IMG/VR virus record: IMGVR_UViG_3300005830_000045
Location: 1-64,000 of that record
DNA length: 64,000 nt
Strand: one strand, 5' to 3'
DNA from: a virus
Shown here in pieces: positions 3,044-60,836 of the stretch. The notes beneath the pieces are model-generated. The model did no database searches. It saw only the letters and a program-made list of their open reading frames with translations, and was not told where the DNA came from. The translations under genes and the position numbers were made by a program. Within the stretch, counting starts at the first letter, position 1; each line of letters begins with the position of its first letter.

Positions 3044-3110
3044 ACTTGCGTGGGGAACCACAGAAGTTTGAAAAATTAGCCATTGTTTGGAAGGTCTCAA
3101 AGGTGGCATC

Positions 3111-3601: not shown

Positions 3602-3883
3602 ATGACAGTAGAAAAACGATTCGTTGTTGTGGTTCCGGCAGGCACGGAGCCGCAACAAGTTGAAGATTTCCCAGAGGGTTGCGCACGGTGCAAACCAGGC
3701 GCATTATACGTAAGGCCTGGAAGCTTTGAAGTCACAGAAGGTGAATTGAAGCACATCCGGAAGCATCACAAGGATTTGGCTAGAAGAATCCAAGTTGTCA
3801 AAGGCCTTGTTGCTGAGCCGAAAGTGAAAAAGGCAGAACCGAAACCAAAGCCTGAATTGCCTAAGAAGAAAGATAAAAAGTAA
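3602..3883 (+). CDS. Hypothetical protein (CxxC, Lys-rich tail)
   Basis: GAGGAG SD and ATG; 93 aa. Confidence 0.6.
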   Translation: MTVEKRFVVVVPAGTEPQQVEDFPEGCARCKPGALYVRPGSFEVTEGELKHIRKHHKDLARRIQVVKGLVAEPKVKKAEPKPKPELPKKKDKK

Positions 3884-3934
3884 TTCAGTGCACAATTGGT
3901 TCCTTGCTTGGCAACGACCAACGGAGGAACATGG

Positions 3935-4393
3935 ATGCTCAAGATACACACCTCAGATGGGAAAACCCACAGAGTCGATTTATCGGATGAAGAGCAAGCC
4001 AAACATTGGCTTTCGCTCTTGAAAAGCTCTAATTTTCAAGAAGAAGTCACGGGTGTTTCTGTAGTTCAAGATTGCCATGGGAGAATACGTTGCTCAAATT
4101 GCAAAAAGCCAGGAAAATTAGTTTGTCAAGCTTGTGGCCAAAACGTTCCTTCTAATAGCAACACAAAGACGGGTGTCCAATATTCTTTATCGAGACCAGA
4201 TGGTTTCGATTCAGTCTTTTATGAAGTTGAACTCATAAGTCCAGAAATTGGTTCCAAAATCAGAGGTGGCGAAAAGGTTACATGTTTCGTTGGAAACCTA
4301 CGCGCAACGATGATGGTTCATGCCGGCCAACCTAGTGTTCGTGTCACCTTGTTGAAAACAGGGAAACGACGATATAATCCAAATAGTGGATGA
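3935..4393 (+). CDS. Hypothetical protein with zinc ribbon
   Basis: CSNC...CQAC; GGAGG SD before ATG 3935. Confidence 0.6.
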   Translation: MLKIHTSDGKTHRVDLSDEEQAKHWLSLLKSSNFQEEVTGVSVVQDCHGRIRCSNCKKPGKLVCQACGQNVPSNSNTKTGVQYSLSRPDGFDSVFYEVELISPEIGSKIRGGEKVTCFVGNLRATMMVHAGQPSVRVTLLKTGKRRYNPNSG

Positions 4394-43896: not shown

Positions 43897-43926
43897 TTGA
43901 CCTTTGAAGCTGTATGGCATTATCCT
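43897..43926 (+). promoter_or_regulatory. Possible promoter of the CobS-like gene
   Basis: TTGACC-N18-TATCCT preceded by A-tracts. Confidence 0.4.
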
Positions 43927-43947
43927 GGATTTATTGGCGCAAACAAA

Positions 43948-45132
43948 ATGGCAAGGAGCAGTGACGCTATGCCATCACCAAAAGACTCCCACGATAGCAG
44001 AGGCAGGGCAAAGGTCAAGTGCGAAGTCTGTGGACTTTGGTATCATCGGCTTGATGTCCACATTGCCAAGAAGCACGGAATGAACGTCGAGCAGTACCAA
44101 GCGACGCACCCAGGGTGCCCAACCATCAGCGAGGCAGCATCCCAGGCAGCGTCATCCGCAGCGGTTAAAAAGGCGTCTCACGCCAAAGTAGTCAGAGAAG
44201 CGAAAGAGGAAACGTTCAGCGGAGACAAGGACACGTTCCGTATCGGCGTGGCACGCCTCAAGATGCGAAAAGACCTCAGCGAAGTAGACAAATTTCACGT
44301 TCCGGACTACGACCCAAAATACAATCTCGGCATGATGGAGAGAGAGAATTGGGAATATATCGCTCTTGGCGTTCAAGATAGTGAAAACGTTTTCATCTCC
44401 GGTCCAACCGGGTGCGGTAAAAGTTTGGGCGTTCTTCAACTCGCAGCAGCTCTCAATCAGCCTGTGCAGCGTATCAACCTTCACGGTGAAGTCAGAGCTT
44501 CTGACTTCGTTGGTGATAAGACTGTTGATGTTGACCCTGAAAGTGGACAAGCCGTTGTTGTGTGGAAAGATGGCATTCTCCCTAATGCTATGCGCAACGG
44601 CCACTGGTTGCTTCTCGATGAATTGGATGCTGCGCCTGCTCACGTGCTTTTCGTGCTCCAGTCTGTTCTCGAAAAGGGGATGCGCCTTGTCCTTTCAAAC
44701 AACAACGGAGAAATAGTAAAGGCCCACGAAAGTTTTCGCATTATCGCAACGGCCAACACTTTTGGCAGAGGCGATGATAGCGGAATGTACGGCGGTACAA
44801 ATATTCTCAACGAGGCATTTCTTGATCGTTTTGGAATCGTGATTCTCGTTGATTACCCTGGCGAGTTAACCGAAAGGGACATCATCGTGGAGCGCACTGG
44901 CTTGAATGGAGATGATGCTAGTAAGATGGTCAAGATTGCTCATGATGTTCGGAAGGCTTTGGAGAATGAAACGGTTTTTTGTTCTTTCTCGACAAGGCGT
45001 CTTGTCGCATGGGCACAAGCCTCTGTTCGATTGGGAGATGTTAAAAGGGCAGTCAAAATCAGCGTAACAAATAGGTTGAGCGCTGAGGATGCAACATTTA
45101 TTTCTGGATTGGTCCAAAGGTATTGGGGGTGA
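43948..45132 (+). CDS. CobS/MoxR-type AAA+ ATPase with N-terminal C2H2 zinc finger (start could be 43969)
   Basis: CEVC..H..KH, GPTGCGKS, W.DG.L..AM..G..LLLDELD, FRIIATANT, NEAFLDRF, STRRL. Confidence 0.9.
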   Translation: MARSSDAMPSPKDSHDSRGRAKVKCEVCGLWYHRLDVHIAKKHGMNVEQYQATHPGCPTISEAASQAASSAAVKKASHAKVVREAKEETFSGDKDTFRIGVARLKMRKDLSEVDKFHVPDYDPKYNLGMMERENWEYIALGVQDSENVFISGPTGCGKSLGVLQLAAALNQPVQRINLHGEVRASDFVGDKTVDVDPESGQAVVVWKDGILPNAMRNGHWLLLDELDAAPAHVLFVLQSVLEKGMRLVLSNNNGEIVKAHESFRIIATANTFGRGDDSGMYGGTNILNEAFLDRFGIVILVDYPGELTERDIIVERTGLNGDDASKMVKIAHDVRKALENETVFCSFSTRRLVAWAQASVRLGDVKRAVKISVTNRLSAEDATFISGLVQRYWG

Positions 45133-45243
45133 TTAGATAAATCTTTCCAATAAAACCTAATAAATTCACAAAGTAGCAAAAAAGTTTGTTTTTTTGGTAG
45201 AATTTTTTGGCAAATTCGTTTATGTTTATCTTATCGGCAACAA

Positions 45244-47274
45244 ATGATGAGGCTAAGGATGAAATTAAAGACCAATGCTCGCAGAAACGCACTTGATGGC
45301 CCTTTCACAGCGATAGCAAGGGCCCAAAGTCGTTCCTGGAAAGTCAATATCGTAGCTTCCGGCAGCGTTCTCGCAACAGATGGCAATACTATATATTTTC
45401 CATGGAATAGCGATGACATCGACACTATTCCTTTCAACGTTTTGAATGGATACCTTGACCATGAGGTGGGGCATATCGCAGAAGAAAGGGAGCATGCTAT
45501 AGACGGTCGTGAGACTCCTCTTGAAATCGCAAAGCGTCAAACAAATATCACAAAAAGAATGCTCCTCAATGTATACGAAGACATTCGTATGGAGATAAAA
45601 AGGGGCAAGATTTATCCTGGAGTCGCAGCAAATCTCAAGGCATCTAACGAGCACTCCGTTGGCACCTTTATAAAAAGATTTGGTGATGGCGATGGCATGG
45701 AAAAGGCTAATTTCTGGCACACTTTAGGGTGCGGGATCATCTTTGCCGCTAGGGAACTTGACACCTTTTGGCTTCCAGAGCAGTACGCTCCGTTCATGGA
45801 AATGCTACAGCCTGAAATCGAGGAAAGTAGGCACGTGGTTTGGGCCCAAGACTCGATGGAGCTTGTCGAGAGAACTTTTGAAAAAGTCCGTGAACTAGCT
45901 AAGGATATTGAAGATTGGATGGAAAAGAAGACAGCTCTGAAGAAAGAAGAGAAAGGCGAGTCAGAGTCAAGCGATACAAAGGGCAAGAGTGAAAGCGACA
46001 CGAAGGATGAAGGTGGTGTTGGTGGCCCTAGCGAAGATGGTTCTGACGATGCAACTGCCGAGGATGGTGATGGTGCCTCTGATAGCGCTGAAGGTGGCGA
46101 TCAGGAAGTTGGTGAAGGCGAGGAAAGTGCTAGCGGTGTAGAGGGTGGTGTCAGGCGTGGCGATAACGCCGAAGGCGATACCTCGTTTGGTTCACCCTCT
46201 ACAAGCGCAGAGGACACAAAAGAGGACATGTCTGAAGGCAAAGAAGAAGTGCCATGCGATGGCGCTGAGAAAGCCGCAGAAATCACAGCTGGGGCTTTTC
46301 AAGATGCTGACACCGATGACATCATGTGCGAAGGCAAGAAAGAAATTGAAAAGGCGAGCGAAGATCTTTCTACCTTGCGCGGTGGATACAACCCCTGCCC
46401 CTCTGCCCTTGAGGCTGATCAGTGGATCGTTCCGAAGAAGGGTGAAGAAGCAATTTACAATCAGATCAAGAAGCAGGTCCAGCAGCAGATTTCTGCACTT
46501 CGGTCCAAGTTGATCCACATCATTCGCAGTCGGGCAATTTCTCGCGAGCAATACGAGCAAGACAATGGGAAGCTTGACACTTCTTCGCTTTACCGCTTGC
46601 GCTTGGGCAGTAAGCAGGTATTCAGCAAGACCGTTTCAGGGCAAATGCTTGACACCGCAGTCACGGTGCTCGTGGACCTTTCTGGCTCGATGGGCGATTC
46701 AAATTTTGCCTATTCCAGAGCTTGTTACGCTAGGATGACGGCTGTTGCCCTTGCAGAAACTTTTGAATCAATCAACGTTCCTTTCGAGATAATAGGGTTT
46801 CACAACAGCTACGACATCCCTTTCAAGCCTGATCGCAGTGGAGCGTTCGTGAATAGACTTCCCTTTGAGTATCACGTTTACAAGAGCTTTGAAGAGGTCC
46901 ATCGCTCCGTTCGATGCCGTCTTGTTGGGATAACAGGACGGCAAGAGAACGCTGATGGCGAGGCAATCGTGGGGGTCGCAAGGAGATTGGTTGTTCGTCC
47001 TGAGAGTCGCAAGCTCATGTTCGTTATCAGCGACGGAAAGCCAGTCTGTCCCGGATTGAGTGATGAAGTTGGCTCAAGACATTTGATTGATTCAATCAAA
47101 AAGGTGCGAGGGGCAGGGATTATCCTTTTTGGTATCGGAGTGCAGCATTTGGATATCGTGCGTTACTATGGCGTAGAGCACAGCATTTGCGTGGACAAAC
47201 TTGACAAGATGGCCGAAAACATTTTCAAGGTCGTGCGTTCCGTACTTATCGCAGGCCTCAAAAAGGTGGCGTGA
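45244..47274 (+). CDS. CobT-like vWA protein (HExxH N-domain, acidic linker)
   Basis: DHEVGH, NVYED.R.E, DLSGSM MIDAS, NADGEA, ISDG.P. Confidence 0.88.
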   Translation: MMRLRMKLKTNARRNALDGPFTAIARAQSRSWKVNIVASGSVLATDGNTIYFPWNSDDIDTIPFNVLNGYLDHEVGHIAEEREHAIDGRETPLEIAKRQTNITKRMLLNVYEDIRMEIKRGKIYPGVAANLKASNEHSVGTFIKRFGDGDGMEKANFWHTLGCGIIFAARELDTFWLPEQYAPFMEMLQPEIEESRHVVWAQDSMELVERTFEKVRELAKDIEDWMEKKTALKKEEKGESESSDTKGKSESDTKDEGGVGGPSEDGSDDATAEDGDGASDSAEGGDQEVGEGEESASGVEGGVRRGDNAEGDTSFGSPSTSAEDTKEDMSEGKEEVPCDGAEKAAEITAGAFQDADTDDIMCEGKKEIEKASEDLSTLRGGYNPCPSALEADQWIVPKKGEEAIYNQIKKQVQQQISALRSKLIHIIRSRAISREQYEQDNGKLDTSSLYRLRLGSKQVFSKTVSGQMLDTAVTVLVDLSGSMGDSNFAYSRACYARMTAVALAETFESINVPFEIIGFHNSYDIPFKPDRSGAFVNRLPFEYHVYKSFEEVHRSVRCRLVGITGRQENADGEAIVGVARRLVVRPESRKLMFVISDGKPVCPGLSDEVGSRHLIDSIKKVRGAGIILFGIGVQHLDIVRYYGVEHSICVDKLDKMAENIFKVVRSVLIAGLKKVA

Positions 47275-49142
47275 TGGTCGGCAAACTTTCATCTGTTGAT
47301 CCTCTTGTCCGTGAAATGTATGAAGAAATAGACGCAAAATTTCTTCCATACATCAAATCTAGGGTGTCATCTCTTTCTGGTGTTGAATTCGATGACGCCG
47401 TACAAGAAGCAAGAGTAGCTTTGTTGACCGCGTTGCACGATTATGACTTCAATCGAGCAGGTGGTGATTATCTTCCATTCATGAAGATTGTCCTTCTGAA
47501 TACTTGTCGCGGTCTGTGGCTGAAAGAACGTAGGCGCTCAAAAACGCCTTGGGTCGCAAAACGTGATGGCGAGGATTGGGTTGAAGGCCCATCGAGACCA
47601 CTTAGCATCCAGCAGTCGAATGATTGCGATGGTCAACGTTTGCCTACTTATGATGCCTTGCCTGATGAAAACGCGATTGGCGGAGACCACATGATTTGCC
47701 ATGAGCATTCTTCTATGCGGGTTGAGGATTTCAAAGAGGTGCTTGAGCAGAATTTGAGCGAGTTTGAGCTGGAGGTGTATCGCTGTCGTGTGGATGCTCC
47801 CAAGGCTTTGATTGAGCAAGTAAAGGCGGATGATGGTGACGTCAACAACATAGGTGTTCTTGATATTGCTAAATTTCTTGGCGTTGGAAAGAACAAAGTA
47901 GATTGGGCGCTGTATAAGATAAAGTCTGCATTTACAGAAGTTGCTGAGAGAATACGCTTCAGCGATGTTTTTGGGGACTTGGTAAATAGCTCACAATGGC
48001 CCGTGGTCCACGTCAGCAAAGGATTTGAACGCAATAAAGAGTTTGTTCGGAGTATTATCAAGGACCGAAATTTAAGTGGTCTCGTCCTTGACGAGATTTC
48101 CGAGGAGTGTGAAAGCGGTGCGCGCACTATCATTTCCTATAAATGGGGCGTTGTCGTCTATATCGAGAGGGCAGAAACATGTTGGACGGCAGTCTTGGAA
48201 GGTTCATTCAATCCTCGCAGCGGTGATTTGTTTGGTTCTTGCGGAGCAAGGAAGTTGCTACCGATTGAGGGCTATGGGCAGTTGGCAAAAGATTTGGCAG
48301 ATGCAAGGAGAAAAGGGATGGCTTCTGTGAACGACGACAGTCAATATGATAGTTTGAAGGTTTTGCCGCATTGTATAAGCGAGTACGAGAAAGGAGATTT
48401 GGTTTGCGACGGGGATGAAAATGCAGAGTTTGATCCCTGTTGCGTCCACAGAGACAATTGTGTTGCTCTCCAATTGCGTATGAAGCAAAAGGGGATGAAA
48501 AAGGAGCAGTACGTTGTCGAGAAAACAGACTCAGCTGGCACACCATATTGTGCGCCGAAAAGCTTGATGAGTTTCGGCAAGATTGTTTCCGGCACGATTC
48601 GTAATTACGGTGTGCGCGACGGCAAGGCAACTCGCACCCCCAAGGCTAGGCCCAATAAAAACTCAAAGGCAGTTTCTCGACACAAGGAGTTGGTAGAAAA
48701 GGCCACTTCTGTTGTCGTGGCACGGTCAGAGGGTGCGACTATTATGGATCCTTGGTATGAAAGAGCTTTGGAAATTTTGTGCGAGAAAACCGGTAGAACG
48801 TTTTGTGCAGGCAACGATCCAAGCATAGGACAGTTTTATGCGAAAGACAGGCGTGCCAAAAGCGGATATGTTGGCGTGTATTGCAAGACGGAAAAGGGCA
48901 GGCATGTGGCGTTGTTTCTTCTCATGTACAAGCCTCGAACAACGACTATGGATTTCAAATGGCCTGTGTCTGTCGATGGATTCAAAGGCGTGGGAGAATC
49001 AACGATCAAATTGCTGTCTCCGGTCAAGCATAGTGATGGTGCTTTCGTTTCTATTTCAAAAGGTCTTGACGGGGCAGGAGTATCTCTTGCGGCTGAATCC
49101 CTTTCTCGCATGATTTCAAATGGCACAATAGTGCTTCCTTGA
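47271..49142 (+). CDS. Sigma70-family (SigH/ECF-like) sigma factor with ~400-aa C-terminal extension
   Basis: Region 2: DDAVQEARVALLTALHDYD..F..I..N; region 4: LSEFELEV..DIAKFLGV..NKVDWALYKIK. Confidence 0.72.
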   Translation: MMVGKLSSVDPLVREMYEEIDAKFLPYIKSRVSSLSGVEFDDAVQEARVALLTALHDYDFNRAGGDYLPFMKIVLLNTCRGLWLKERRRSKTPWVAKRDGEDWVEGPSRPLSIQQSNDCDGQRLPTYDALPDENAIGGDHMICHEHSSMRVEDFKEVLEQNLSEFELEVYRCRVDAPKALIEQVKADDGDVNNIGVLDIAKFLGVGKNKVDWALYKIKSAFTEVAERIRFSDVFGDLVNSSQWPVVHVSKGFERNKEFVRSIIKDRNLSGLVLDEISEECESGARTIISYKWGVVVYIERAETCWTAVLEGSFNPRSGDLFGSCGARKLLPIEGYGQLAKDLADARRKGMASVNDDSQYDSLKVLPHCISEYEKGDLVCDGDENAEFDPCCVHRDNCVALQLRMKQKGMKKEQYVVEKTDSAGTPYCAPKSLMSFGKIVSGTIRNYGVRDGKATRTPKARPNKNSKAVSRHKELVEKATSVVVARSEGATIMDPWYERALEILCEKTGRTFCAGNDPSIGQFYAKDRRAKSGYVGVYCKTEKGRHVALFLLMYKPRTTTMDFKWPVSVDGFKGVGESTIKLLSPVKHSDGAFVSISKGLDGAGVSLAAESLSRMISNGTIVLP

Positions 49143-49155
49143 TCATATAAATCTT

Positions 49156-49509
49156 TTGGAGGTTTTTTCGGTGCACGGTGACAGAGACTCATATCACGTG
49201 GCGGCACCGGGAAGAGATAGAGAGGGGTGTCTCGTCCATGCAATACAGGAGTACAGAAGAGTGAAGTTCGGTGACGATGTAATCTTGCGCCGGGGTGGCC
49301 ACCCTGACAAGCGCCCTGGTCAGTTCAGGGATGTGAGGGCCCGCTACATTGGCGCAAGGGGTCACGGGATCTACTGTGAGTTGCTGCAAGACGATCCAGA
49401 CGCTGTTGTCCAACCTAAGACAAAGGGGGGCAAAGGATGGTGGTCTCGCAGCATCATGAGGAGAGGTGATTCTGATCTTGATGGGCCGCCAGAGAAGAGT
49501 GATGAGTAA
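49156..49509 (+). CDS. Hypothetical protein
   Basis: 117-aa ORF filling the gap; start uncertain. Confidence 0.4.
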   Translation: MEVFSVHGDRDSYHVAAPGRDREGCLVHAIQEYRRVKFGDDVILRRGGHPDKRPGQFRDVRARYIGARGHGIYCELLQDDPDAVVQPKTKGGKGWWSRSIMRRGDSDLDGPPEKSDE

Positions 49510-50590
49510 ACCGAGACTCGAATGTGCTGACTGCGGACATCACATTTGGGATCGTAACATCAAAGAGTACCTGGAAGCCGTGAAGAGGAAGCGGGATGAA
49601 GAATTTATGGAAAGAGTAGTGATAATTGGCGGAGGTGTGTCTGGTCTCCTTGCGTCGTATGTTGTGAAACGCTATGGAAGAAGGGTGAAAGTCATAGAGG
49701 AAGCAAAGCCAGGTGGCGACTTTCTTTTGGGAGGTTTGAAGTATATACACAGAACGGTCAGAATGGAAGGTTTATTCAATGAACTTTCACTTCCATGGAG
49801 CCATTATAGGGTCAATGGCGGAATAATGCTGAAGGGGAAAGTTGAACCATATCCGAAATGTCTTCAGTTTATGAGTAAAGAAGAAGCAATGAGGATACAA
49901 GAAGATCATTACAGAAAAACGAGAAAGTCAGAGCCTGGAAAGTTTGGATCAAAGGCCATGAATGATCCGGCAGCGAAAGTTTCTAGGCGGGCAATTCGTT
50001 GTGACTTTGAAGAAATGATTAAAGAATTGGCGAAAAGAGCAGACATAGTCAAAGCTCGTGTTTCTTTTATTGAGTCAAAAAGAAATAGGGTGAAAACATT
50101 TGATGGTGAGTTTATCTATTATGACCGTTTGATCGTAACTATTCCTCTTTGGATTGTTCATCATATTGCTGACTTTTATGTTCCGCAAGGGATGGCGATG
50201 TCTCTGAACATTTTGGATGTTATTCCAAATAGAGATAGATATGCTCGATGGGATTACATTTACACCCCTTACACTCCGTCAAGCGCGGTTCATCGTTTGA
50301 GCCCAAGTGATCATGGATATAGCATCGAGATCAATGGTGATTGGGCCCAACAAGAAAGAGCTACGTGTAACGATTTGGCCTTTCTTTTCCCTGACGGGTT
50401 TGTCGTTCGTGGTGCTAAGATTGGCACAAAGGGGCATTTGCTTGAGCTCGTGGTAAAGCCTGATTGGCCTGAAAATGTTACGCCTTTGGGCCGTTTCGCG
50501 CAATGGGATCCACGAGCAACAACTGATGTCACTTTGGACAATATTCATAAGATGGCAAAGGGCTGGGGATGGAAAAAGATTCCTTATTGA
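49502..50590 (+). CDS. FAD-dependent oxidoreductase (UDP-galactopyranose-mutase/amine-oxidase-like fold); start 49502 or 49607
   Basis: VVIIGGGVSGL..E..PGG..G.KYIH, YDRLIVTIPL, LGRFAQW. Confidence 0.8.
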   Translation: MSKPRLECADCGHHIWDRNIKEYLEAVKRKRDEEFMERVVIIGGGVSGLLASYVVKRYGRRVKVIEEAKPGGDFLLGGLKYIHRTVRMEGLFNELSLPWSHYRVNGGIMLKGKVEPYPKCLQFMSKEEAMRIQEDHYRKTRKSEPGKFGSKAMNDPAAKVSRRAIRCDFEEMIKELAKRADIVKARVSFIESKRNRVKTFDGEFIYYDRLIVTIPLWIVHHIADFYVPQGMAMSLNILDVIPNRDRYARWDYIYTPYTPSSAVHRLSPSDHGYSIEINGDWAQQERATCNDLAFLFPDGFVVRGAKIGTKGHLLELVVKPDWPENVTPLGRFAQWDPRATTDVTLDNIHKMAKGWGWKKIPY

Positions 50591-51495
50591 GAATGTGGGA
50601 GATTCAAAAGCAACAACAAGCTGATCTTGGTCTTGATCCTCGTTACATGAACGGCGTGAATAAACGTGTTGCCGCTGGTGAGTTGATACAGGGGCTGTAC
50701 GAGGAGTTGTCAGAGCTTCAACGGTATGCCTCGACATATAAGAGGCACATTCTGTCGGTTGAAGGCGTCAACAAAGGGAATGTCACGGAAGAAATCGTTG
50801 ACGTGTTAAAACTTCTCATTTCGGTGGCCCAGCTCCATGGCATTTCTCCGGTTGATCTTGTGAGCGCTTTTGAGAGAAAGACACGAGTGATAGCAGCTAA
50901 GGCAGAGGGGCAACGGGTTGAGTTGTGTGTAAACACGAAAGTCCTCTGCGTGGATATGGATGATGTCATCGCTGATCTTTCCCCTTGGGTGAAGGAGCAA
51001 CAGGAACTAAGAGGTGATGCCCCGATGAATGCCAAGACTATGCAGTTGGTGGAAGCGTGGAAAGGTGATTGGTATCGTTTAGGACGTTTTTTGGAATTGA
51101 GGCCGATTGAAGGCGCATCTACAGCGCTTGGCGTTGTGAAAAGTTGGGGGTGGAAAGTTATCATTATCACGGCAAGACCGCAATGGCAATACAAGCGTAT
51201 TTACGCAGACACTCTTGAGTGGCTTCGGGCGCACGAAGTTCCGCATGATTTGATACTTTTCAATAAGGACAAAGTTGAAGCTATATATGATCACATATCT
51301 CCTGCTTGGCCGGTTGCTTTTGTTGAAGATCAGGAAAGAAACGCTGTTCAACTCAGCGCGGCTGGAGTAAAGGTGTTATTATTCGATACGGAACGCAATC
51401 AAGATTTCGTGTTGCCAAACGGCGTGCAAAGGGTTGCGAACTGGACAGAAGTTCTTTTAGCTTTGGAAAAAAGAAAGAAAGGGGGGCGCCGATGA
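50569..51495 (+). CDS. All-alpha NTP pyrophosphatase (dUTPase/MazG-like) fused to HAD 5'-nucleotidase
   Basis: EELSEL..EEIVDV..AFERK; VDMDDVIAD, ITAR, T.EWL, K, FVED. Confidence 0.82.
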   Translation: MEKDSLLRMWEIQKQQQADLGLDPRYMNGVNKRVAAGELIQGLYEELSELQRYASTYKRHILSVEGVNKGNVTEEIVDVLKLLISVAQLHGISPVDLVSAFERKTRVIAAKAEGQRVELCVNTKVLCVDMDDVIADLSPWVKEQQELRGDAPMNAKTMQLVEAWKGDWYRLGRFLELRPIEGASTALGVVKSWGWKVIIITARPQWQYKRIYADTLEWLRAHEVPHDLILFNKDKVEAIYDHISPAWPVAFVEDQERNAVQLSAAGVKVLLFDTERNQDFVLPNGVQRVANWTEVLLALEKRKKGGRR

Positions 51496-52448
51496 ATGAA
51501 AAGCCCAAAGTCACCTTGCTTACTTGGACCATGAATCCTTTGGAAACGGTTTACTCTGTTTGGCAAGCCTCGAAAAGCGAGGATGAGCTGGTTACGCCTT
51601 TCAATGTGAAAACATCAGTCTCGCAGGAAGAAGTTGAAAGACTTTTCAGGGCTGTAATTGCCCAGCGTATTCCGATTGGGGAGCATGTTGATTTCGTTTT
51701 CATGCTTGAAAACGTCAGTGTGAGTTGGCGCGAACAAGCTGTGCGACACAGGATTGGAACGCTTCCAAGCCCAGAGCGTGTCGGCGTGGACATTGTCATG
51801 GATCAAATTCCAGATTTGCCGGACAGTTCATTTTGGTCGCAGTCGATGAGAATACAAAATATGAGCAACTTCGCCAGAAAAGGCGCTTACAGGTTGCCTG
51901 AGACAGTTATAGAGGCAGGGCCTGAAATGGTTTCTCTTTATAAAGAAACTATGAGGTTGATCGAGAGGACATATGCGGTTTTGGTTGAAGAAGGTGTTCC
52001 TATGGAGGATGCCCGTGAACTTATTCCTCTTGGCGCCCAACACAGAATTAGTTGGCGGCTCAATATAGGTTCCCTGCAACATATCGTTGGGAAGCGAGGG
52101 TGTTGGATTCTCCAGCTTGGAATTTGGGGGCCTGTGATTACGGGGATGGTCAACGAATTGGCGACAAAGGTCCATCCGGTTTTCAGAGAATTGGTTGCGC
52201 CTCCTTGTTTGAAAGGCGATGAGTTTATGGGGTGTATTTACCATGAGGAGTGTCGCAGGCGTTATACTGGTGATGATGCGCTTCCGCCTTGCCCGCTTCA
52301 TCTTACCTATCATGAATTGCCTGCCAAGGGGTTGGAATACGTTGAAGCACAATTCTTATATCCTCGTATGGAAGAAATGGAGGAACGAGCGGAGCAGTAT
52401 CGCGTTTTTTGGGGCAGAGATCCGTATACAGGAGAAAGGTTGTGTTAG
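51492..52448 (+). CDS. thyX: Divergent flavin-dependent thymidylate synthase-like protein
   Basis: EH..F.F..VS...Q.VRHR, SQSMR, GVPMEDARELIP, N..SL....R. Confidence 0.8.
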   Translation: MNEKPKVTLLTWTMNPLETVYSVWQASKSEDELVTPFNVKTSVSQEEVERLFRAVIAQRIPIGEHVDFVFMLENVSVSWREQAVRHRIGTLPSPERVGVDIVMDQIPDLPDSSFWSQSMRIQNMSNFARKGAYRLPETVIEAGPEMVSLYKETMRLIERTYAVLVEEGVPMEDARELIPLGAQHRISWRLNIGSLQHIVGKRGCWILQLGIWGPVITGMVNELATKVHPVFRELVAPPCLKGDEFMGCIYHEECRRRYTGDDALPPCPLHLTYHELPAKGLEYVEAQFLYPRMEEMEERAEQYRVFWGRDPYTGERLC

Positions 52449-52655
52449 ATGGGACGAAAGATTCATTGGTCTGGCGGGGTGATGTTGTCTATGGTTAGGA
52501 TGCTTCGTGGGTATCCTTGTTGCTGTTCTGGAGACAAGGCGCTCAAAATCAGGTCTTTTGGGAACCAAACAGAAAAACGTGAAGACGTAACATGCAAGGA
52601 TTGCTTAGGCATTCTAAAAAGGCAGGATAAGTACCATGAAGATCACAACTGTTGA
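52449..52655 (+). CDS. Small Cys/His-rich protein
   Basis: H..PCCC..VTCKDC; tightly packed with its neighbours. Confidence 0.5.
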   Translation: MGRKIHWSGGVMLSMVRMLRGYPCCCSGDKALKIRSFGNQTEKREDVTCKDCLGILKRQDKYHEDHNC

Positions 52656-53388
52656 TTTGGGAGGAATATGCGTGGCGAAAGTTGTTGATAGTCGCACAGG
52701 AGAATTTGATCGTGCTCGTATTAGAGATAATGCTCCGCATTCGCATTATGCTCTTGATCGTGAGGATATTCACATTGAGCTTGCTGCCTTTGAAAAGGTT
52801 TGCAGGAGAATAGGAGAGCGTAGTGATTGGACCGTATTCGAGCCATTTGGTGGTTCTGGTTGGCATTCTTCTTTGATCAGGCGTTTGGTTGGTCCAAGAA
52901 AGCAATTTGTGGTTGATATTTCAAAGGATTGCATTCGTTCTGTTTGTGCTGGTTTGAAAGGCAATCGTGGTGTGATTGCTATTTGCGGAGATGGCTGTGA
53001 TTACCTAAGGCATTCCAAGTGGAAATTCAATTGGATTCACGCTGATTTCAATATTTGGACGGCTGAAGACATGAGTCTTGACCCTGAGTTGCGTGGCACT
53101 TGGAATGCTCTCTTTGAAATGGCAACGGATTGTATTACTTTCACGGACACTACGCATTATCACCTGGCTAATAGTCCTGTTGTGTATTGGTATGATGAAG
53201 TTGATCGTTGGATCAAGGTCACGAAGGGTTGGAAAGTTGATTTCGTGTTCGATTGGGGGCCAGCGGCCATGCATGTGCTTTCTCCTTTGAAGGAGAAAGA
53301 AAAAGAGGTTTTCGCAAAACCGCTCATAGTACAGGTCAGGGAACCTATGAAGGTAACAGTTTTGAGAGAGGAGAGCAGTGATGAGTAA
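52636..53388 (+). CDS. Class I SAM-dependent methyltransferase-like protein
   Basis: VFEPFGGSG, VVDIS, CGDG, IHADFN. Confidence 0.7.
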   Translation: MKITTVDLGGICVAKVVDSRTGEFDRARIRDNAPHSHYALDREDIHIELAAFEKVCRRIGERSDWTVFEPFGGSGWHSSLIRRLVGPRKQFVVDISKDCIRSVCAGLKGNRGVIAICGDGCDYLRHSKWKFNWIHADFNIWTAEDMSLDPELRGTWNALFEMATDCITFTDTTHYHLANSPVVYWYDEVDRWIKVTKGWKVDFVFDWGPAAMHVLSPLKEKEKEVFAKPLIVQVREPMKVTVLREESSDE

Positions 53389-54739
53389 TCAGAATGAAGA
53401 CACGACCATTGACACTATGGTATTCAACAAGCGTTTGATGAATAACATTGTCAGACTTCCTTTTGAAGTTGAAACAGCTCGTGGTTCTGCTATTCGTACT
53501 GTTCAGGGGCACGTTTTGTTGGATTTCTGGGGCGATGAAGGCGTATGTAGTCTTGGATACAACACAGAAGAATACAGAAGGATAGTGGATAATTTTCACA
53601 GCAGTGGACAACCGCATCAGTTGCCAGATGTTTATCCCCAGACCTCCAGATTCAACGCAGCAGAGAAGATTTGCCAGATGACAGATATGGACCGCATCTT
53701 TTTCGCAAATAGCGGTACAGAAGCGAATGAAGCAGCCATCAAAATTGCAAGAAAATTTTGGTGGGATAAGTATAGCAATATATATAGAGAAGGAAGAATA
53801 AAGTCAAATAAAGCGTACGCACGGCGGCATATAGTTCTCACAATTGCCGGAAACTTTCATGGCAGAACTGGGCTAAGCAGCGCGGCAAGCGACCCAAGGG
53901 TCAGTCCGTATCACCATTGGGGGTTTGGCCCGAAGCCAAAAGGTTTTGGCGTTATCGACGATAAGACTTTCCTTCAAGTCGTTACAGACGGCGATGTCCA
54001 TGAAGATTATCCGATTGAACCTGATTGGTCCAACGTTGCTGCTGTGATTCTTGCTCCGGTTTTGGGAAACAATTTGGTAAAGACATATTCTAAAAGCTTT
54101 TGGGAGGAACTTGGAGCTTTGAGGAAGAAGCACGGATTTCTTATTATCCACGATGACGTTCAAGCCGGAAGCGGAAGAGCAGGTTGGCCAGCAACGTATC
54201 AAGGGATTTCTGTCTTTGATTCGAGGTTTGAAAGCTTGGTCAAACCAGACATATTGTGTCTCGGGAAAGGCATGGCTCTTGGCTATCCAATGAGCGCGAT
54301 GCTTGCCTCTGAAGAAGTTGCTTCCGCTTTTACTCCCGGTGTCCACTTCAACACTTTTGGAGGCAGCCCTTTCGTTTGTTATCTTGCCGAGCAATATTAT
54401 AGTTGGCTTGAATTGGAACTTCCGAAAGTCAGAGATTTGGGCGAGGCAATTCGTTTGCGTTTCTCTGAAATGGCCTGGATCAAGGAGCATGACGGGTCTG
54501 GTTTGCTCAACGCTTTCACGCCTAATTTCGGGAAGTATGGATATGATGGTTTTGAGTTTTGTCACAAGGCTCGTGATTTCGGCATTAGCATTGTGACCCA
54601 TCGACGATATGGGCCAATTCGATTCACGCCTCCAATGAACGTTGCTCCTGATGAGATTGCTACCGCCTTTATTGCGTTGGAAAGAACACACAAGTTTTTG
54701 ACAAAAGAACACAGAAGCTTTAGGTTGGAGGATGAATAG
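53378..54739 (+). CDS. Class III PLP-dependent aminotransferase (ArgD/ornithine AT-like)
   Basis: FFANSGTEANEAAIKIAR, FHGRT, DDVQAG.GR.G, PDILCLGKG, HFNTFGGSP. Confidence 0.92.
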   Translation: MMSNQNEDTTIDTMVFNKRLMNNIVRLPFEVETARGSAIRTVQGHVLLDFWGDEGVCSLGYNTEEYRRIVDNFHSSGQPHQLPDVYPQTSRFNAAEKICQMTDMDRIFFANSGTEANEAAIKIARKFWWDKYSNIYREGRIKSNKAYARRHIVLTIAGNFHGRTGLSSAASDPRVSPYHHWGFGPKPKGFGVIDDKTFLQVVTDGDVHEDYPIEPDWSNVAAVILAPVLGNNLVKTYSKSFWEELGALRKKHGFLIIHDDVQAGSGRAGWPATYQGISVFDSRFESLVKPDILCLGKGMALGYPMSAMLASEEVASAFTPGVHFNTFGGSPFVCYLAEQYYSWLELELPKVRDLGEAIRLRFSEMAWIKEHDGSGLLNAFTPNFGKYGYDGFEFCHKARDFGISIVTHRRYGPIRFTPPMNVAPDEIATAFIALERTHKFLTKEHRSFRLEDE

Positions 54740-56069: not shown

Positions 56070-59000
56070 ATGCATGATTCAGAAAAGAAAGAAGATTTTG
56101 TTCATCTCCACACTCATAGTGATTTGAGTCAGCTTGACGGCTGCGGAAAGATTTCTGATTACGTGGACGCAGCCCATAAGCGTGGAAATCCAGCAATCTC
56201 GTTCACTGATCATGGAACTATGAGAGGATACATGACGCAGTATGAGGAGTGCAAGAGGGCTGGAATCAAGCCAATCTACGGGGTTGAATTCTACGTTTCT
56301 CGAAATATGTACCGTAAGGGTATCACCGCTGAAGAAAAGACGGAACTTTCAAAGGGCAGGACCAAGGCGCAAGCGAAGGAGGTGATTGCGCAATACGAAA
56401 TAAATGAAGGGATCAGAAAGCGTTGGCACCTGACGGTGCACGCCGAAACAGAAGCGGGGCTGAAAAACCTTTTCAGACTGACCTCGAAAGCTTTCATTGA
56501 AGGTTTTTACTACAAGCCTCGAATAGATATTGAAACGCTCTGCGAGCACAGCGAAGGTTTGATTGTTTCTTCTGGTTGCGTTGGAAGTCCAGTCAATAGT
56601 AATTGGTTTGAAGGGAATAGGCGTTATGCCGTTGAAGTATCAGATAAGTTGCATGAGGTGTTCCAAGACCGTTATATGATTGAAATTCAGCCGCACGATA
56701 TAGCAGAACAGCTGGAAGCGAATAAGTTGGCTGTGAAACTCAGGAAAAGATATGGCGGGAAATCGCGTCTTGTCGCGACGCAAGATGCTCATTATATCAA
56801 CAAAAGTGATGCCGTTCACCACGATGTTCTTCTTTGCATAGGCACAGGAAGTTATCTTTCAGACCCAAAGCGTATGAAGTTTGACGGCGATGAATTTCAT
56901 ATGCGAACACGTCGTGAGATGATTCGAGCATTCATGAAGTGGCACAGCGGATTGACCAAGGGCCAAATAAAAGAGGCATTGGACACCACGATGCTCTTCC
57001 ACGAGCGTTGCAACGTCAAACTCAATATTGACTATCACGCAGCCTTGCTTCCTGATCCTGGTATCCCTCCTGAATATGTCGATGATTTCTCGTATTTGAA
57101 AGATTTGTGCATTCAAGGTTGGAGCTGGAGAGAAATACCGGCAAGGGCTTTAGCGTATTCGGTGAAACACGGGGTGCCTTACGAGGAAGCTTTGTCGCTT
57201 TACAGCAAACGTTTGAAGCATGAACTTGGAGCTATAAAGAAGCAAAGATTTGTTCCGTATTTTATTCTAATACACGACTTGTATCGTTGGGCACGCGGTG
57301 AGAATATAATGGTTGGCCCTGGTCGTGGAAGCGTAGCAGGTTGCCTAATTGGGTATCTGATCGGATTGACTTCTGTTGACCCTATTGATCATGGGTTGAT
57401 CTTTGAGCGATTCATCAACCCAAATCGTATCGACATGCCTGATATTGATATGGACTTTGAAGACAGGAGAAGGCAAGAGGTTTTTGCATACCTCAGGAGG
57501 AAGTACGGTGAAGACAAAGTTTGCCAAATTGCCACCGTTGGCAAGCTATCCGGGAAGCAGTGTCTCAAGGATGTTTCTCGCGTTCTACAGGTTCCATACG
57601 CGGAAGTCAACCAGGTGACAAATTCCATCATCGAGCGTTCTAGCGGGGATGAACGGGCATCGCAGACAATTGAAGACTCTTTCAAGGAGTTTGAAATATG
57701 TCGAGATTTTGATAAGAGATACCCGAAAGTTTTGTATCATTCAAAACGTCTTGAAGGCATGGCCAAAAACTTGGGAATACACGCTGCAGGAGCTGTTGCC
57801 TCTCCGGTGCCGCTGACAGATATCATCCCTCTGGAAGTGAGGAAGCATAATGGGAAAGATGTTATAGTCTCAGCCGTGGACATGTACGGCGTTGCTGCGA
57901 GTGGTTTGGTAAAGCTCGATGTTTTAGGTTTGCGCACACTCACCGTTTTGAAAGAAGCGACAGAAGCGATAGAAGAAAGGCATGGCAGGAAGATTGACCT
58001 TGAATCAGCAGAAGTTGATTTGAGCGACCCGAAAGTTTTGAAGGGGTTCACAGATCACGATTATGGAGGCGTTTTTCAGTATGATACGCCTTCAGCGGAC
58101 AAGGTCTGTTCAGGCGTCAAGTTCTCTTCTTTCGAGGACATTGCCGCCATGACAGCTCTCAACAGGCCAGGCACATCCAGAAGCGGTTTGGCATCCCGAT
58201 ATGTGGACAGAAAAAAGAATCCAGAGAAAGCAAAGAAACACGATTTCCATCCAGCTGTTTCCGAGATAACGAAGGACACGTTGGGCATTATCGTGTACCA
58301 AGAGCACGTCATAAAGATATTCACAGACATCGCTGGATTTGCTCCGGCAACGGCTGACTCTTTGCGTAAAACAATCGCTAAAAAGATTGGCGATGAAACC
58401 ATGGGGAAGGAACGTGCCAACTTTGTTGCTGGAGCTGTTGAGAAAACGGGAATGGACGAGAAAACCGCACATAAGATTATGGACGCGATAACTTTTTTCG
58501 GGTGCGTTCCTTGGTGGACGCAAATAGCAACGCCATTTGGGCCAAGGGCAATTGATTCTTTGTCTGATGGTGATGAAATTTACAGCGTTGAAGAATGCGG
58601 GAAAGTTGTCATCAATACCATAAAGACGGTCACAAGCACAGGGCCAAAGGATTTGTATCGAATAACTGCGAGCGGTTTTATGGTTGATTCTTCCAACGAC
58701 CACTATTGGGAGTGCATGGAAGGAGGTTACAAAAAGGCTAGTGAGCTTTGTGAAGGTGAATTCATATCGTATGTTATGGGGCATGGATTCAAATCATCCG
58801 AAAAAGAAAAGCTTTTGCTTGAAGAAGGATTGCGCAAGGGAAGTGTTTTGCCGAGGATTGTGCAGCCTTCATTATCAGAGACAGTACAGAAAGAAGCGGA
58901 CAGAAAAGGGCAACCCTGTGAGCAGTGCGCACAACAAGTGGCCCGGAGCACCGGGCAAGGGTTGGAAAAGGGGCAAAAACAAGAATACGCATCCAGGGAT

Positions 59001-60836
59001 AGCAGCGCACGCGAAAGCTATGATGGGAGAGTTGAATCCGGCTTGGACAGACTGGAGTTATTCAGAATTCAAAATAATGAAAGATACGCTGCTGGAAAAG
59101 ATAAAGGTCTGCCAAAGGTGCGGTTGCCCTCCGGACGAGGGAAGCGATGCCCCGAATGTGAGAGTTTTGCACGTCCACCACAAGAACAGAAACAAAAAGG
59201 ACAATTCGGCGGACAACTTGGAAGTTCTCTGTCAATCTTGTCACAGCAAGGAGCATTGGGAGGAAAAGCACTCTGGTGGATTCGGGTGGATGAAATTCGT
59301 CAAATAGCAGATAGATCAACGCACAGAAGTGGTTGCCCTGCTAGGGATATTGAGTGTTATGACATAGAGGTTGATTCTAGTCCATGTAATTATGTGGCTA
59401 ACGGAATAATATGCCATAATTCCTATGGATTCAATAAGAGCCATGCAACAGCTTATGGGATGATAGCGTTTTGGTGCATGTTTCTCAAGACCTATTATCC
59501 TCTTGAGTTTTATTGGTCGCTGTTGAAAAACGAGCCAGACCGTGTCCGGATACAACAGTTGGCGAAACACGCAAAGAAGAAAGGCATATCATTCTTGTCG
59601 CCTTCTGTGAACACTTCCAAGGCGCACTTTGCCATAGATGATAGTCGTGGAGCAATTCGAGGTTCCCTTGTAGACATAAAAGGAGTTGGGACAGCGGCAG
59701 CGAAAGCTATTATGGCGACGCAGCCTTATACTGACTTTTTTGACTTCCTTGATCGAGTAGACAAGAGAAAGGTTCACAAAGGCGTCGTGGCTTCTCTTGT
59801 CCGGGCAGGAGCACTGGATGATTTGGTCCCCAATCCTCGGTGGCTTATTGAGAACATGGAAGCATTCTGGAAGCAAGTTGCGAAGAAGTCAGAGGAAGCG
59901 CAGAAAGAAGCAAGGCGGATGATTGAGGCGTCAAAGGATGAAAAGTCTTGGGACGCAGAGGAAAAGCAGCTTATCGCTTCCAAGGTGAACCCTCTTGCTT
60001 TCGGGAAGCACCCGATGGATACTTACAAGGATTTCTTGAATAAAAACGTGAAGATAAAGATTGCAGATATGTCAGCTGGTGATTTCTATGAGAGGAATGA
60101 TGGAAGAATAGTCCTTGTCGGTGGAACTATAGTGGAAGTGAAACTCAATCAAATAGGTGACTTTCACACTGGAAGGCTGCCGACTGAAGAGGAACGTGAG
60201 CGTATGTTTTGGGGGAAACGTTATGCTAACGTAAACATAGAAGATATTGGCGGAGTTCAGAATAGAATCAAGTTTGATTGGGACGTTTACCCTGGTATGC
60301 GTCCTGTTATTGAATTAGGTTTGGGTGCTCCGGTGCTCGTGATGGCCTCTGTGAATGCGAAATTTGAGAACATGAGGGCTTTTTTCGCAGTCGATTTGGA
60401 GGGGATGAGAAAGAAGTTGATTTCGGGGAAACCATTGGGCATGTGGGAAAGCATTGTGACCGGAAACCATCCTGTGAAGCACATAAAGGCTAAGAGCGAT
60501 GCCGTCAAAAGAGCCATGTGGACCAATAAATATTACAGGATGTCTCCGAAAGGAGGTCCATTTTGGGGTGTTGTGACGAACATTCGTTTGAAATACGACA
60601 AGCGCGGTCAACTTATGGCTTTCTTTGGTCTTATTGGCGGCAACGGTTTCATGATTGATGTAATTTGCTTTGCTTCTCAATGGGAATTTGTCAAAACTGT
60701 AATCAGCGTTGAACAGGTGTTGAAGATAGAAATAGGCAGATCAAGAGAAAGAGGCAGAGGAGTGTCTCACATTTTCAACGGTGGCTTGGTAAAAAGTTTC
60801 AAGTCTGTTTGTGAAAAGGAGAAAGAAGATGAGTAA
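56070..60836 (+). CDS. dnaE: DNA polymerase III alpha subunit, intein-containing
   Basis: FVHLHTHS..S.LDG, TDHG, GPGRGS, MPDIDMDF, GIHAAG, KLDVLGL, YQE, YGFNKSHA. Confidence 0.97.
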   Translation: MHDSEKKEDFVHLHTHSDLSQLDGCGKISDYVDAAHKRGNPAISFTDHGTMRGYMTQYEECKRAGIKPIYGVEFYVSRNMYRKGITAEEKTELSKGRTKAQAKEVIAQYEINEGIRKRWHLTVHAETEAGLKNLFRLTSKAFIEGFYYKPRIDIETLCEHSEGLIVSSGCVGSPVNSNWFEGNRRYAVEVSDKLHEVFQDRYMIEIQPHDIAEQLEANKLAVKLRKRYGGKSRLVATQDAHYINKSDAVHHDVLLCIGTGSYLSDPKRMKFDGDEFHMRTRREMIRAFMKWHSGLTKGQIKEALDTTMLFHERCNVKLNIDYHAALLPDPGIPPEYVDDFSYLKDLCIQGWSWREIPARALAYSVKHGVPYEEALSLYSKRLKHELGAIKKQRFVPYFILIHDLYRWARGENIMVGPGRGSVAGCLIGYLIGLTSVDPIDHGLIFERFINPNRIDMPDIDMDFEDRRRQEVFAYLRRKYGEDKVCQIATVGKLSGKQCLKDVSRVLQVPYAEVNQVTNSIIERSSGDERASQTIEDSFKEFEICRDFDKRYPKVLYHSKRLEGMAKNLGIHAAGAVASPVPLTDIIPLEVRKHNGKDVIVSAVDMYGVAASGLVKLDVLGLRTLTVLKEATEAIEERHGRKIDLESAEVDLSDPKVLKGFTDHDYGGVFQYDTPSADKVCSGVKFSSFEDIAAMTALNRPGTSRSGLASRYVDRKKNPEKAKKHDFHPAVSEITKDTLGIIVYQEHVIKIFTDIAGFAPATADSLRKTIAKKIGDETMGKERANFVAGAVEKTGMDEKTAHKIMDAITFFGCVPWWTQIATPFGPRAIDSLSDGDEIYSVEECGKVVINTIKTVTSTGPKDLYRITASGFMVDSSNDHYWECMEGGYKKASELCEGEFISYVMGHGFKSSEKEKLLLEEGLRKGSVLPRIVQPSLSETVQKEADRKGQPCEQCAQQVARSTGQGLEKGQKQEYASRDSSARESYDGRVESGLDRLELFRIQNNERYAAGKDKGLPKVRLPSGRGKRCPECESFARPPQEQKQKGQFGGQLGSSLSILSQQGALGGKALWWIRVDEIRQIADRSTHRSGCPARDIECYDIEVDSSPCNYVANGIICHNSYGFNKSHATAYGMIAFWCMFLKTYYPLEFYWSLLKNEPDRVRIQQLAKHAKKKGISFLSPSVNTSKAHFAIDDSRGAIRGSLVDIKGVGTAAAKAIMATQPYTDFFDFLDRVDKRKVHKGVVASLVRAGALDDLVPNPRWLIENMEAFWKQVAKKSEEAQKEARRMIEASKDEKSWDAEEKQLIASKVNPLAFGKHPMDTYKDFLNKNVKIKIADMSAGDFYERNDGRIVLVGGTIVEVKLNQIGDFHTGRLPTEEERERMFWGKRYANVNIEDIGGVQNRIKFDWDVYPGMRPVIELGLGAPVLVMASVNAKFENMRAFFAVDLEGMRKKLISGKPLGMWESIVTGNHPVKHIKAKSDAVKRAMWTNKYYRMSPKGGPFWGVVTNIRLKYDKRGQLMAFFGLIGGNGFMIDVICFASQWEFVKTVISVEQVLKIEIGRSRERGRGVSHIFNGGLVKSFKSVCEKEKEDE
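58503..59420 (+). mobile_element. Intein in DnaE (306 aa)
   Basis: FFG|CVPWWTQIAT (block A), SSNDHYW (block B), CYDIEV..NYVANGIICHN|S (blocks F/G); removal restores FFGSYGFNKSH. Confidence 0.93.
58771..59307 (+). CDS. HNH endonuclease overprinted in the +1 frame inside the intein (start 58771 or 58783)
   Basis: C..DC....RGLC..HY Zn finger, GELNPAW, CQRC..LHVHHKNRNKKDNSADNLEVLCQSCHSKEH. Confidence 0.88.
   Translation: MLWGMDSNHPKKKSFCLKKDCAREVFCRGLCSLHYQRQYRKKRTEKGNPVSSAHNKWPGAPGKGWKRGKNKNTHPGIAAHAKAMMGELNPAWTDWSYSEFKIMKDTLLEKIKVCQRCGCPPDEGSDAPNVRVLHVHHKNRNKKDNSADNLEVLCQSCHSKEHWEEKHSGGFGWMKFVK

Follow-up and report, generated by a model that had tools for sequence, protein, structure and literature searches.

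The DNA analysed here, positions 1 to 64,000 of the IMG/VR virus record IMGVR_UViG_3300005830_000045 (the window, 64,000 nucleotides in all), belongs to an 80.5-kb linear viral contig from an uncultivated tailed estuary phage, and includes a gene for a DnaE-type DNA polymerase III alpha subunit that is interrupted by an intein. We interpret this interruption, with a probability of roughly four in five, as a composite selfish element in the phage dnaE gene: a class-1 intein together with a zinc-finger/HNH homing-endonuclease gene nested within it in the +1 frame (Table 1). In this interpretation, the intein would splice itself out of the polymerase, and the ribosomes translating dnaE would read the HNH DNA in its -1 frame, producing a stop-free, unstructured linker of 160 residues between the two splicing lobes that would be thrown away together with the excised intein. 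The HNH protein, of ~20 kDa, would be made apart from the polymerase by internal initiation at its own start. It would most likely nick or cut intein-less dnaE at the conserved insertion site, with the ensuing repair copying in the intein along with the HNH gene, i.e. homing.

Table 1. Features of the interrupted dnaE gene and of the gene nested in its intein (window coordinates; a slash marks an intein/extein junction here and in the text)
Feature	Position	Strand	Remarks
DnaE-type DNA polymerase III alpha gene	56070..60836	+	open reading frame, 1588-aa precursor including the intein
Class-1 intein, 306 aa	58503..59420	+	site ..ITFFG/C...CHN/SYGFNKSH; Cys1 at 58503
N-terminal splicing lobe	58503..58778	+	intein residues 1-92, blocks A and B; AlphaFold2 pLDDT 81-89, beta-rich
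Weak Shine-Dalgarno-like AAGGTG	58753..58758	+	12 nt before ATG 58771; long spacing
Nested HNH homing-endonuclease gene (predicted)	58771..59307	+	+1 frame, 178 aa plus TAG; PF01844
Host-frame linker	58779..59267	+	intein residues 93-255; results from reading the HNH gene in its -1 frame; disorder predicted
N-terminal zinc-finger-like motif C-x4-C...C-x2-HY	58816..58875	+	HNH residues 16-35; kept in all homologues
HNH catalytic core CxxC, HH, N, N, CxxCH..H	59110..59256	+	HNH residues 114-162
C-terminal splicing lobe	59268..59420	+	intein residues 256-306; blocks F and G, terminal HN

The +1 frame is open from 58666 to 59304 and closes with a TAG at 59305-59307; it contains in-frame ATG codons at 58771 and 58783, and a GTG at 58741 is an alternative start. 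Its product matches the Pfam HNH family PF01844 over residues 114-162 with 28.9 bits (cut-off 21.4; E 1.3e-6), and displays a GELNPAW motif along with C114xxC117, H136 H137, N145, N149 and C154xxC157-H158. Across 35 sequences there is no variation at C114, C117, H136, H137, N149, C154 and C157 and hardly any at H158; N145 and H162 are invariant among 7 sequences. The N-terminal zinc-finger-like motif appears repeated in many library matches, with several matched stretches falling on query residues 11-45. An AlphaFold2 model of the product, based on the 35-sequence alignment, has a mean pLDDT (predicted local distance difference test score) of 82.9 and reaches 96-98 in the catalytic core, where strands 134-137 and 150-153 are followed by a helix at 155-175 (pLDDT 96-98), an arrangement that may represent the beta-beta-alpha-metal fold. 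The PDB chains nearest to this model in Foldseek searches (best E 0.028) are all HNH nucleases, namely McrA, GVE2 HNH, Cas5-HNH, Cap5, T4 endonuclease VII and I-HmuI.

The intein, whose junctions read ITFFG/CVPWW...IICHN/SYGFNKSH with Ser as the +1 residue, has its block B histidine at H67 in the sequence SNDH, and C1, H67, H305 and N306 are invariant among 5 aligned homologues. It is matched by the Pfam Intein_splicing family with E 1.8e-5 at 25 bits, which does not reach the Pfam cut-off of 35.8 bits. Modelled in the host frame, the intein folds only at residues 1-92 and 256-306, and residues 93-255 have a pLDDT of 23-42; the folded part, which is of the HINT type, retrieves mini-intein structures in Foldseek (Ssp/Npu DnaB, Mtu RecA and gp41-1; E 1.6e-6 to 1e-4). 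The C-terminal lobe has a pLDDT of about 75-81 except in a loop at residues 270-281, and its invariant residues are D287, P294, Y297, H305 and N306. The HNH open reading frame (ORF) corresponds to intein residues 90-269, which is the canonical endonuclease gap from block B to block F. The first ~12 codons of the C-terminal lobe are shared with the unconserved tail of the HNH ORF; only in this overlap with the lobe's first strand, about a dozen codons long, are two functional segments actually double-coded. The linker yields no match to any nuclease family in Pfam and no HNH motif on inspection, and its share of hydrophobic, charged and polar residues does not differ clearly from that of the third frame, hence giving no sign of selection for a particular composition. 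The first-pass annotation, made from the letters alone, had recognized here intact splicing blocks (Cys1, the block B His, the terminal HN and the Ser +1), a stretch between blocks B and F devoid of a nuclease in the DnaE frame, and, in the +1 frame, a complete HNH protein with a zinc finger and the above motifs, preceded by AAGGTG 12 nt ahead of ATG 58771. Its motifs and their positions, including those of both ATG codons and the HNH stop within the intein, are borne out in every respect, and PF01844 now adds a family match above the cut-off.

As the catalytic residues are intact and only one DnaE was located in the window, the intein is predicted to excise itself from the polymerase by protein splicing. 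Pfam assignments precomputed for P0005, a protein identical to the DnaE of the window, include the PHP, DNA_pol3_alpha, finger and HHH_6 domains, which are also present in the homologue L003. The insertion point lies two residues upstream of what we take, from the Ssp DnaE intein, to be the cyanobacterial split-DnaE site (..Y/CFNKSH).

Two open frames over so long an interval might be thought to reflect chance or faulty assembly. The third frame has 10 stops across the 178 HNH codons, and synonymous shuffles of the HNH ORF contain on average 11.3 host-frame stops with none of 5000 being stop-free, against 0 stops in the real sequence, in agreement with the early observation that both frames are open throughout the overlap. 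Likewise, the host frame in the six loci tested has 0 stops versus 4-14 expected from synonymous shuffles, the probability of obtaining none being 0/5000 shuffles in five loci and 0.007 in one. As to the assembly, a check for compensating indels had been called for at the outset, and Logan contigs from four estuary runs that fall on 57800-60100 show 0 differences and 0 gaps. One 44-kb Logan contig covers the whole stretch, and the interval 59146-59440, with the HNH stop and the 3' junction of the intein, is also represented in two more runs; the identical 1588-aa protein occurs in two assemblies, JGI and Logan. An assembly artefact is very unlikely even though the 5' junction is covered by a single run, because the same frame relation recurs in nine other contigs, which come from different samples. 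The four public runs with DNA of this phage (X1-X4, 57800-60100) are all labelled as metatranscriptomic estuary libraries, and the presence of a 44-kb contig in one of them could reflect carry-over of DNA or a very active infection.

Relatives of the HNH product were collected by an exhaustive HMMER search, after which JGI metagenome contigs and IMG/VR were scanned with an alignment of the closest ones; matches are cited below by L and P numbers. Close matches in the HMMER search were three small proteins, and distant HNH proteins numbered in the hundreds. Seven other divergent phage lineages (nine contigs) have, at the same DnaE site, an intein that contains an HNH ORF in the +1 frame; their host ORFs encode DnaE with an intein at FFG/C...HN/SYGFNKSH and exteins 39-58% identical to those of the window. 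At the canonical endonuclease position the carriers are L003, L004 (whose ORF is identical to protein P0007), L005 (=L055=L133), L054 (=L128) and L122, the last coming from the scan of DnaE loci described below. The host ORF is 1572-1595 codons long in four complete relatives, and that of L054 is cut by the end of its contig. The HNH homologues of L003, L004, L005, L052/L053 and L054 are 43-55% identical to the HNH of the window, and all lie in the +1 frame; over all homologues with this frame relation the identity is 43-61%. The HNH of L052:3983-4468 (=L053, L116, L117) is of the window type (49-54% identity by alignment) but is located in the +1 frame only 14 codons after Cys1, with the entire rest of the splicing domain 3' of the HNH gene, a non-canonical position for an endonuclease. 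L118:3135-3728 (and L119) carries a different +1 cargo at the same DnaE site, a tandem HNH_3 protein (two domains, E 2.7e-19) with a C-terminal CxxC..HY finger, placed early in the intein directly after block A.

Other searches delimit the family. A single-protein scan of viral contigs returned only the unrelated free-standing HNH L002, and word-based protein searches found two weak relatives of the HNH, and for the intein region nothing beyond the window's own protein. A blastn search of the INPHARED phage collection with the region gave no match. In genome contigs scanned with the HNH, matches were limited to the HNH core, mostly in metagenome-assembled genomes of Patescibacteria, and included no close relative; hence, the host of the phage cannot be inferred from them. 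The viral, metagenome and genome scans contained no free-standing close relative of the HNH (at least 45% identity), and all members of the HNH family with this zinc finger that turned up came from DnaE inteins at this one site.

Several side observations were made among these matches. The protein P0003, from a 655-nt ENA contig, resembles the host-frame linker of the window in its N-terminal half (E 1e-6) and the HNH frame in its C-terminal half (E 2e-32), and represents either a decaying relative frameshifted within its HNH gene or a sequencing error. The 8450-nt loci L052 and L053 are identical except for 9 clustered mismatches at 4850-4861, 32-43 nt downstream of the intein 3' junction, which change the C-extein from HATAYGII to HATEFDRV; this difference may reflect local variation next to the homing site or an error of assembly. 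More distant HNH ORFs occur in the +1 frame of genes for C-5 cytosine DNA methylases (L010, L016, L025, L057, L059, L063, L072-L079, L094, L101-L105), loci in which Pfam detects no intein. About 25 methylase loci of the ShiLan type figure among the more distant HNH matches, and they are seemingly common in IMG/VR contigs. In addition, L081:3548-4267 is a TerL intein with a nested +1-frame HNH.

To compare the frames we used 141 ungapped codon columns from six lineages. Pairwise differences at positions 1, 2 and 3 of the HNH-frame codons are 0.42, 0.35 and 0.63, respectively, and amino-acid identity averages 0.50 for the HNH frame, compared with 0.255 for the host frame and 0.259 for the third (nonsense) frame. 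In Nei-Gojobori (NG86) estimates for the HNH frame the nonsynonymous rate (dN) is 0.33-0.48 with the synonymous rate (dS) saturated, and their ratio, omega, is 0.17 in the sole computable pair (L004/L005); the host frame gives an apparent omega of 1.5-2.0. Such a pattern is characteristic of overprinting. These values indicate that the +1 HNH frame is under purifying selection, and that in the host frame selection, outside of the splicing lobes, keeps only the absence of stops and leaves the wording of the linker unconstrained. Taken together, the lack of host-frame stops against the 4-14 expected and the conservation of the HNH frame show that both the HNH protein and an open polymerase frame are being kept. 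The first-pass annotation had regarded the per-frame dN/dS in homologues as decisive for its proposal of a dual-coding mobile element, in which a separate +1 HNH ORF lies within a polymerase/intein frame that is merely kept open, and the comparative data agree with that proposal.

In nearly all nested cases that we met the HNH lies in the host's +1 frame, though these cases are partly non-independent. The only +2 case is L045:3830-4495 (=L100), an ORF of 1348 codons that contains two inteins, with an HNH_3 ORF nested in the second. In the +1 layout a host-frame stop would require a T at the third position of an HNH codon followed by AA, AG or GA, and a change of that T to C would always be silent in the HNH frame. 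This silent removability of host-frame stops may be the reason why the +1 layout predominates.

With regard to translation of the HNH, most relatives have a Shine-Dalgarno motif and a start located 1-4 codons before the first cysteine of the zinc finger (six in L005): AGGAGG-5-ATG in L003, GGAGG-4-TTG in L004, GAGG-6-ATG in L052, AGGAG-9-TTG in L054 and GAGG-9-ATG in L005. In L003, L052 and L054 a +1-frame stop stands 3-5 codons ahead of the start codon preceded by the Shine-Dalgarno motif. Many genes of the window's phage, dnaE included, have no clear Shine-Dalgarno motif, and no promoter or terminator was detected on the + strand of 58000-59600. As the +1 frame of these relatives opens only a few codons before a start with such a signal, the evidence favours internal initiation rather than +1 frameshifting as the source of the HNH protein. 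Thus, of the two routes to a separately made nuclease that had been suggested initially, internal start or +1 frameshift, the relatives' signals point to the former, and separate production itself is predicted from the same signals. Uncoupling of the HNH dose from polymerase splicing would be a plausible consequence of such a separate gene.

The history of the insertion site was traced by a scan with the N-extein segment, which recovered 80 phage DnaE loci. The site is empty in the loci whose exteins are nearest to those of the window (L109, L110 and L139) and in about 20 others; FFG/SYGFNKSH is unbroken in about 20 related phage DnaE genes. The empty-site DNA of the L110 type reads ..TTCTTCGGG/TCGTACGGTTTCAATAAG.. 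around the insertion point, and the conserved DNA at the site is ...ATCACnTTCTTyGGn/TCnTAyGGnTTCAAyAAG.... L111 has at this site a 154-aa mini-intein, with which the N-terminal lobe of the window can be aligned (CVPFWTQIA..) and to which the splicing lobes of the window are most closely related (43-45% identity). In L142 and L145 the site holds an intein with an in-frame HNH, and in-frame HNH inteins also occupy the neighbouring FNK/SH site in P0018, L140 and L144. The HNH ORFs are conserved at 40-61% and the surrounding splicing lobes at 25-43%, and the HNH of L052 groups with those of the window, L003, L054 and L122. A second DnaE insertion with an in-frame HNH was seen six codons downstream (FNK/T...VVSHN/SH) in L111:3581-4435 and in L109 and L124 (about 3100-4000), with L111 thus having the mini-intein and the second element in tandem. 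The first residue of this downstream insertion is apparently Thr (TVGRSAMVW, TICKNAWVW, TLWENSYVL), which is unusual as an N-terminal intein residue.

From these alleles, the most likely origin would be the invasion of a mini-intein by an HNH gene of the free-standing type, with repeated gain. Descent from a single frameshifted in-frame intein fits less well, because a one-indel intermediate would be expected to truncate the polymerase. A further reading, which we put forward tentatively and at distinctly less than even odds, is that the zinc-finger/HNH gene is an autonomous mobile cassette that moves independently of the splicing domain rather than being a fixed part of the intein, and that it keeps its own -1 frame free of stops and so can lodge in coding DNA without truncating the host protein. 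Compatible with this are the occurrence of window-type HNHs at two intein positions (the block B/F gap and, in L052, the loop 14 codons after Cys1), the unrelated HNH_3 cassette in the early loop of L118, the better conservation of the HNH ORFs relative to the splicing lobes, the affinity of the window's lobes to the L111 mini-intein without a cassette, and the distant HNH ORFs in the +1 frame of intein-less methylase genes. If this reading were true, the DnaE site would offer a natural series (empty, mini, +1 at two positions, in-frame) of endonuclease acquisition and domestication.

Several observations weigh against the composite-element interpretation or weaken what it rests on. The codons for the frame comparison were aligned by their HNH translation, which favours the HNH frame, though the third-position periodicity is independent of the choice of alignment frame. 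In Foldseek the HNH model obtains weak E-values, which is to be expected of a small domain. The initiation signal in the window is likewise weak, consisting of AAGGTG/AGGTGA 11-12 nt from ATG 58771 or AAGGAGG 14 nt from GTG 58741, which makes the assignment of the start tentative. The patchy distribution of the intein fits repeated loss as well as gain; the extein tree, a quick tree and not a careful maximum-likelihood one, requires 4 changes for the five canonical carriers, which is no better than with shuffled labels; and the closest carrier/empty pair, L133/L135, differs by ~20% of nucleotides throughout with no co-conversion tract, and is hence uninformative. The weak signal in the window, along with a +1 frame free of stops over the 35 codons that precede ATG 58771 (from 58666), could also be accommodated by programmed ribosomal frameshifting, which would yield either a fusion of N-extein, N-terminal intein segment and HNH or, after a second shift, a canonical in-frame HNH intein. 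We consider this improbable: the stops shortly ahead of the starts of L003, L052 and L054 leave almost no room for a shift, no shared slippery motif was noticed at either junction, where no formal search was run, and restoration of the polymerase would require a second shift ahead of the HNH stop.

The other alternatives concern the reality and the role of the nested gene. That two indel errors in assembly or sequencing created the apparent offset might be entertained for a metagenomic contig with single-run coverage of the 5' junction, but its probability is close to negligible given the agreement of four runs and two assemblies, the recurrence of the offset in nine other contigs and the absence of host-frame stops where about 11 are expected. 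The in-frame HNH inteins at the same site (L142, L145) and at FNK/SH (P0018, L140, L144), and the apparent frameshift within the HNH of P0003, would be in keeping with a decaying intein, whose ancestral in-frame HNH was shifted by two compensating indels and whose +1 ORF is a functionless recent fossil. This is highly improbable, as six lineages with HNH proteins sharing only 40-61% identity all have an intact +1 ORF, which shows third-position periodicity, saturated dS and start signals of its own; moreover, the same HNH family is still in the +1 frame at a second intein position, and the first single indel would truncate DnaE, making the intermediate probably lethal. A different proposition is that the nested HNH is under selection but is not the homing enzyme of this intein, being instead a domesticated phage nuclease (e.g. 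packaging-associated or anti-competitor) for which the intein serves as a safe harbour. Selection on the HNH is established but its target is not, and the better conservation of the HNH ORFs than of the lobes, the placement of the cassette at two intein positions and the distant HNH ORFs in methylase genes without an intein would all suit a harboured gene. We nevertheless regard it as improbable, since the family with this zinc finger was found only in DnaE inteins at one site with no free-standing close relative in the scans, and the patchy presence of the intein among close exteins is what is expected of a homing element.

Other products encoded in the window are a tape-measure-like minor tail protein, DnaB- and DEAD-type helicases, ThyX, RecA and an HU-like protein; these genes and the rest are all on the + strand. 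The region 5' of dnaE (43897-54739) contains genes for a MoxR-like AAA ATPase, a CobT/VWA protein, an FAD/NAD-binding protein, an NT5C-type 5'-nucleotidase, ThyX and a class-III aminotransferase, which may constitute a nucleotide or base-modification module.

The out-of-frame nested architecture, of which the first-pass annotation could not say whether it had been reported, has already been described in 2025-2026 for other nucleases and host genes. The practical consequence for annotation is that gene-calling programs list the 1588-aa polymerase alone and overlook the nuclease, so that inteins of this kind are misread as decaying or mini-inteins. From the evolutionary viewpoint, the coexistence of empty, mini, in-frame and +1 alleles, the last at two positions, provides material for the scenario in which splicing comes first and the endonuclease invades later, and permits testing whether nested ORFs on the same strand turn into in-frame domains via indels. 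For protein engineering, lobes of ~130 residues that would tolerate an unstructured insert of 160 residues, and a compact HNH with a highly conserved target, could be of interest.

Among the known systems, canonical HNH inteins, in which the nuclease is in frame (Dalgaard et al. 1997, as cited in later work), share with the window the nuclease superfamily and a polymerase host gene, as seen in P0018, L142, L145, L140 and L144, with L142 and L145 sharing also the site; however, their HNH is a domain of the intein polypeptide, whereas that of the window is out of frame. Classification of the window as a canonical in-frame HNH intein was ruled out, its linker having no HNH motif or family and its HNH being in the +1 frame. 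The fractured genes of Dassa et al. 2009 (PMC2677866), in which split inteins flank a free-standing homing endonuclease (HEN) gene, resemble it in having an endonuclease gene of the free-standing type at the endonuclease position of an intein and in coming from environmental phage-like DNA, but differ in that their host gene is in two ORFs whose products are spliced in trans. A fractured gene or split intein was likewise ruled out for the window, which has one uninterrupted ORF of 1588 codons (1572-1595 in complete homologues).

Closer parallels are found among out-of-frame nucleases. In phage DNA methylase genes of the ShiLan type (Arsenault, Gosselin, Gogarten, Genes 2025; PMC11855218) a hidden out-of-frame HNH with its own start similarly lies inside a stop-free host ORF, but there is no splicing domain and the read-through peptide stays in the methylase, whereas that of the window would leave with the intein. 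Non-canonical inteins with endonuclease ORFs in antisense orientation or out of frame, the cyanobacterial dnaX intein with its LAGLIDADG endonuclease being the case in point here, are credited in later papers to Gorbalenya 1998. Phillips, DeSimone and Gogarten (bioRxiv 10.64898/2026.09.14.751524) reported an out-of-frame LAGLIDADG ORF in cyanobacterial dnaX inteins with a frame-specific omega pattern. As in the window, the overlapping ORF has a low omega and the host frame an inflated one, the linker is disordered in the model, the nested ORF is preceded by Shine-Dalgarno motifs, alleles of the full, mini and empty kinds occur side by side, and secondary invasion of a mini-intein was proposed; in contrast, the dnaX inteins have a LAGLIDADG nuclease in a +2 ORF on bacterial chromosomes, and the window an HNH in a +1 ORF of a phage genome.

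The actinobacteriophage inteins of Gosselin, Arsenault, Gogarten et al. (bioRxiv 10.1101/2025.01.02.630785), which have an out-of-frame, same-strand endonuclease VII-like HEN and for which an invasion model was proposed, also combine a contiguous open intein with a separate nuclease ORF that is flanked by the splicing blocks and lies on the same strand in a different frame. Their in-frame linker too is without a recognizable fold, and their proposed origin is a free-standing HEN invading an intein. They differ in the nuclease, which is endonuclease VII-like (IPR004211) and in 'frame 3', and in their location in DNA polymerase, minor capsid, TerL and ThyX genes of cultured actinophages; the window has instead a zinc-finger/PF01844 HNH in the +1 frame of a Pol III alpha (DnaE) intein from uncultivated estuary phages, and its site additionally features +1 variants at two intein positions along with mini-intein and in-frame forms. 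Our literature search found no paper on an out-of-frame PF01844-type HNH in an intein, nor any such case in DnaE. What is new here is the combination of an HNH nuclease with a Pol III alpha host gene, in the +1 frame and in uncultivated phages, together with the set of sister alleles, which leaves the basic picture drawn by the 2025-2026 papers unchanged and adds to it an HNH/DnaE example with natural variants.

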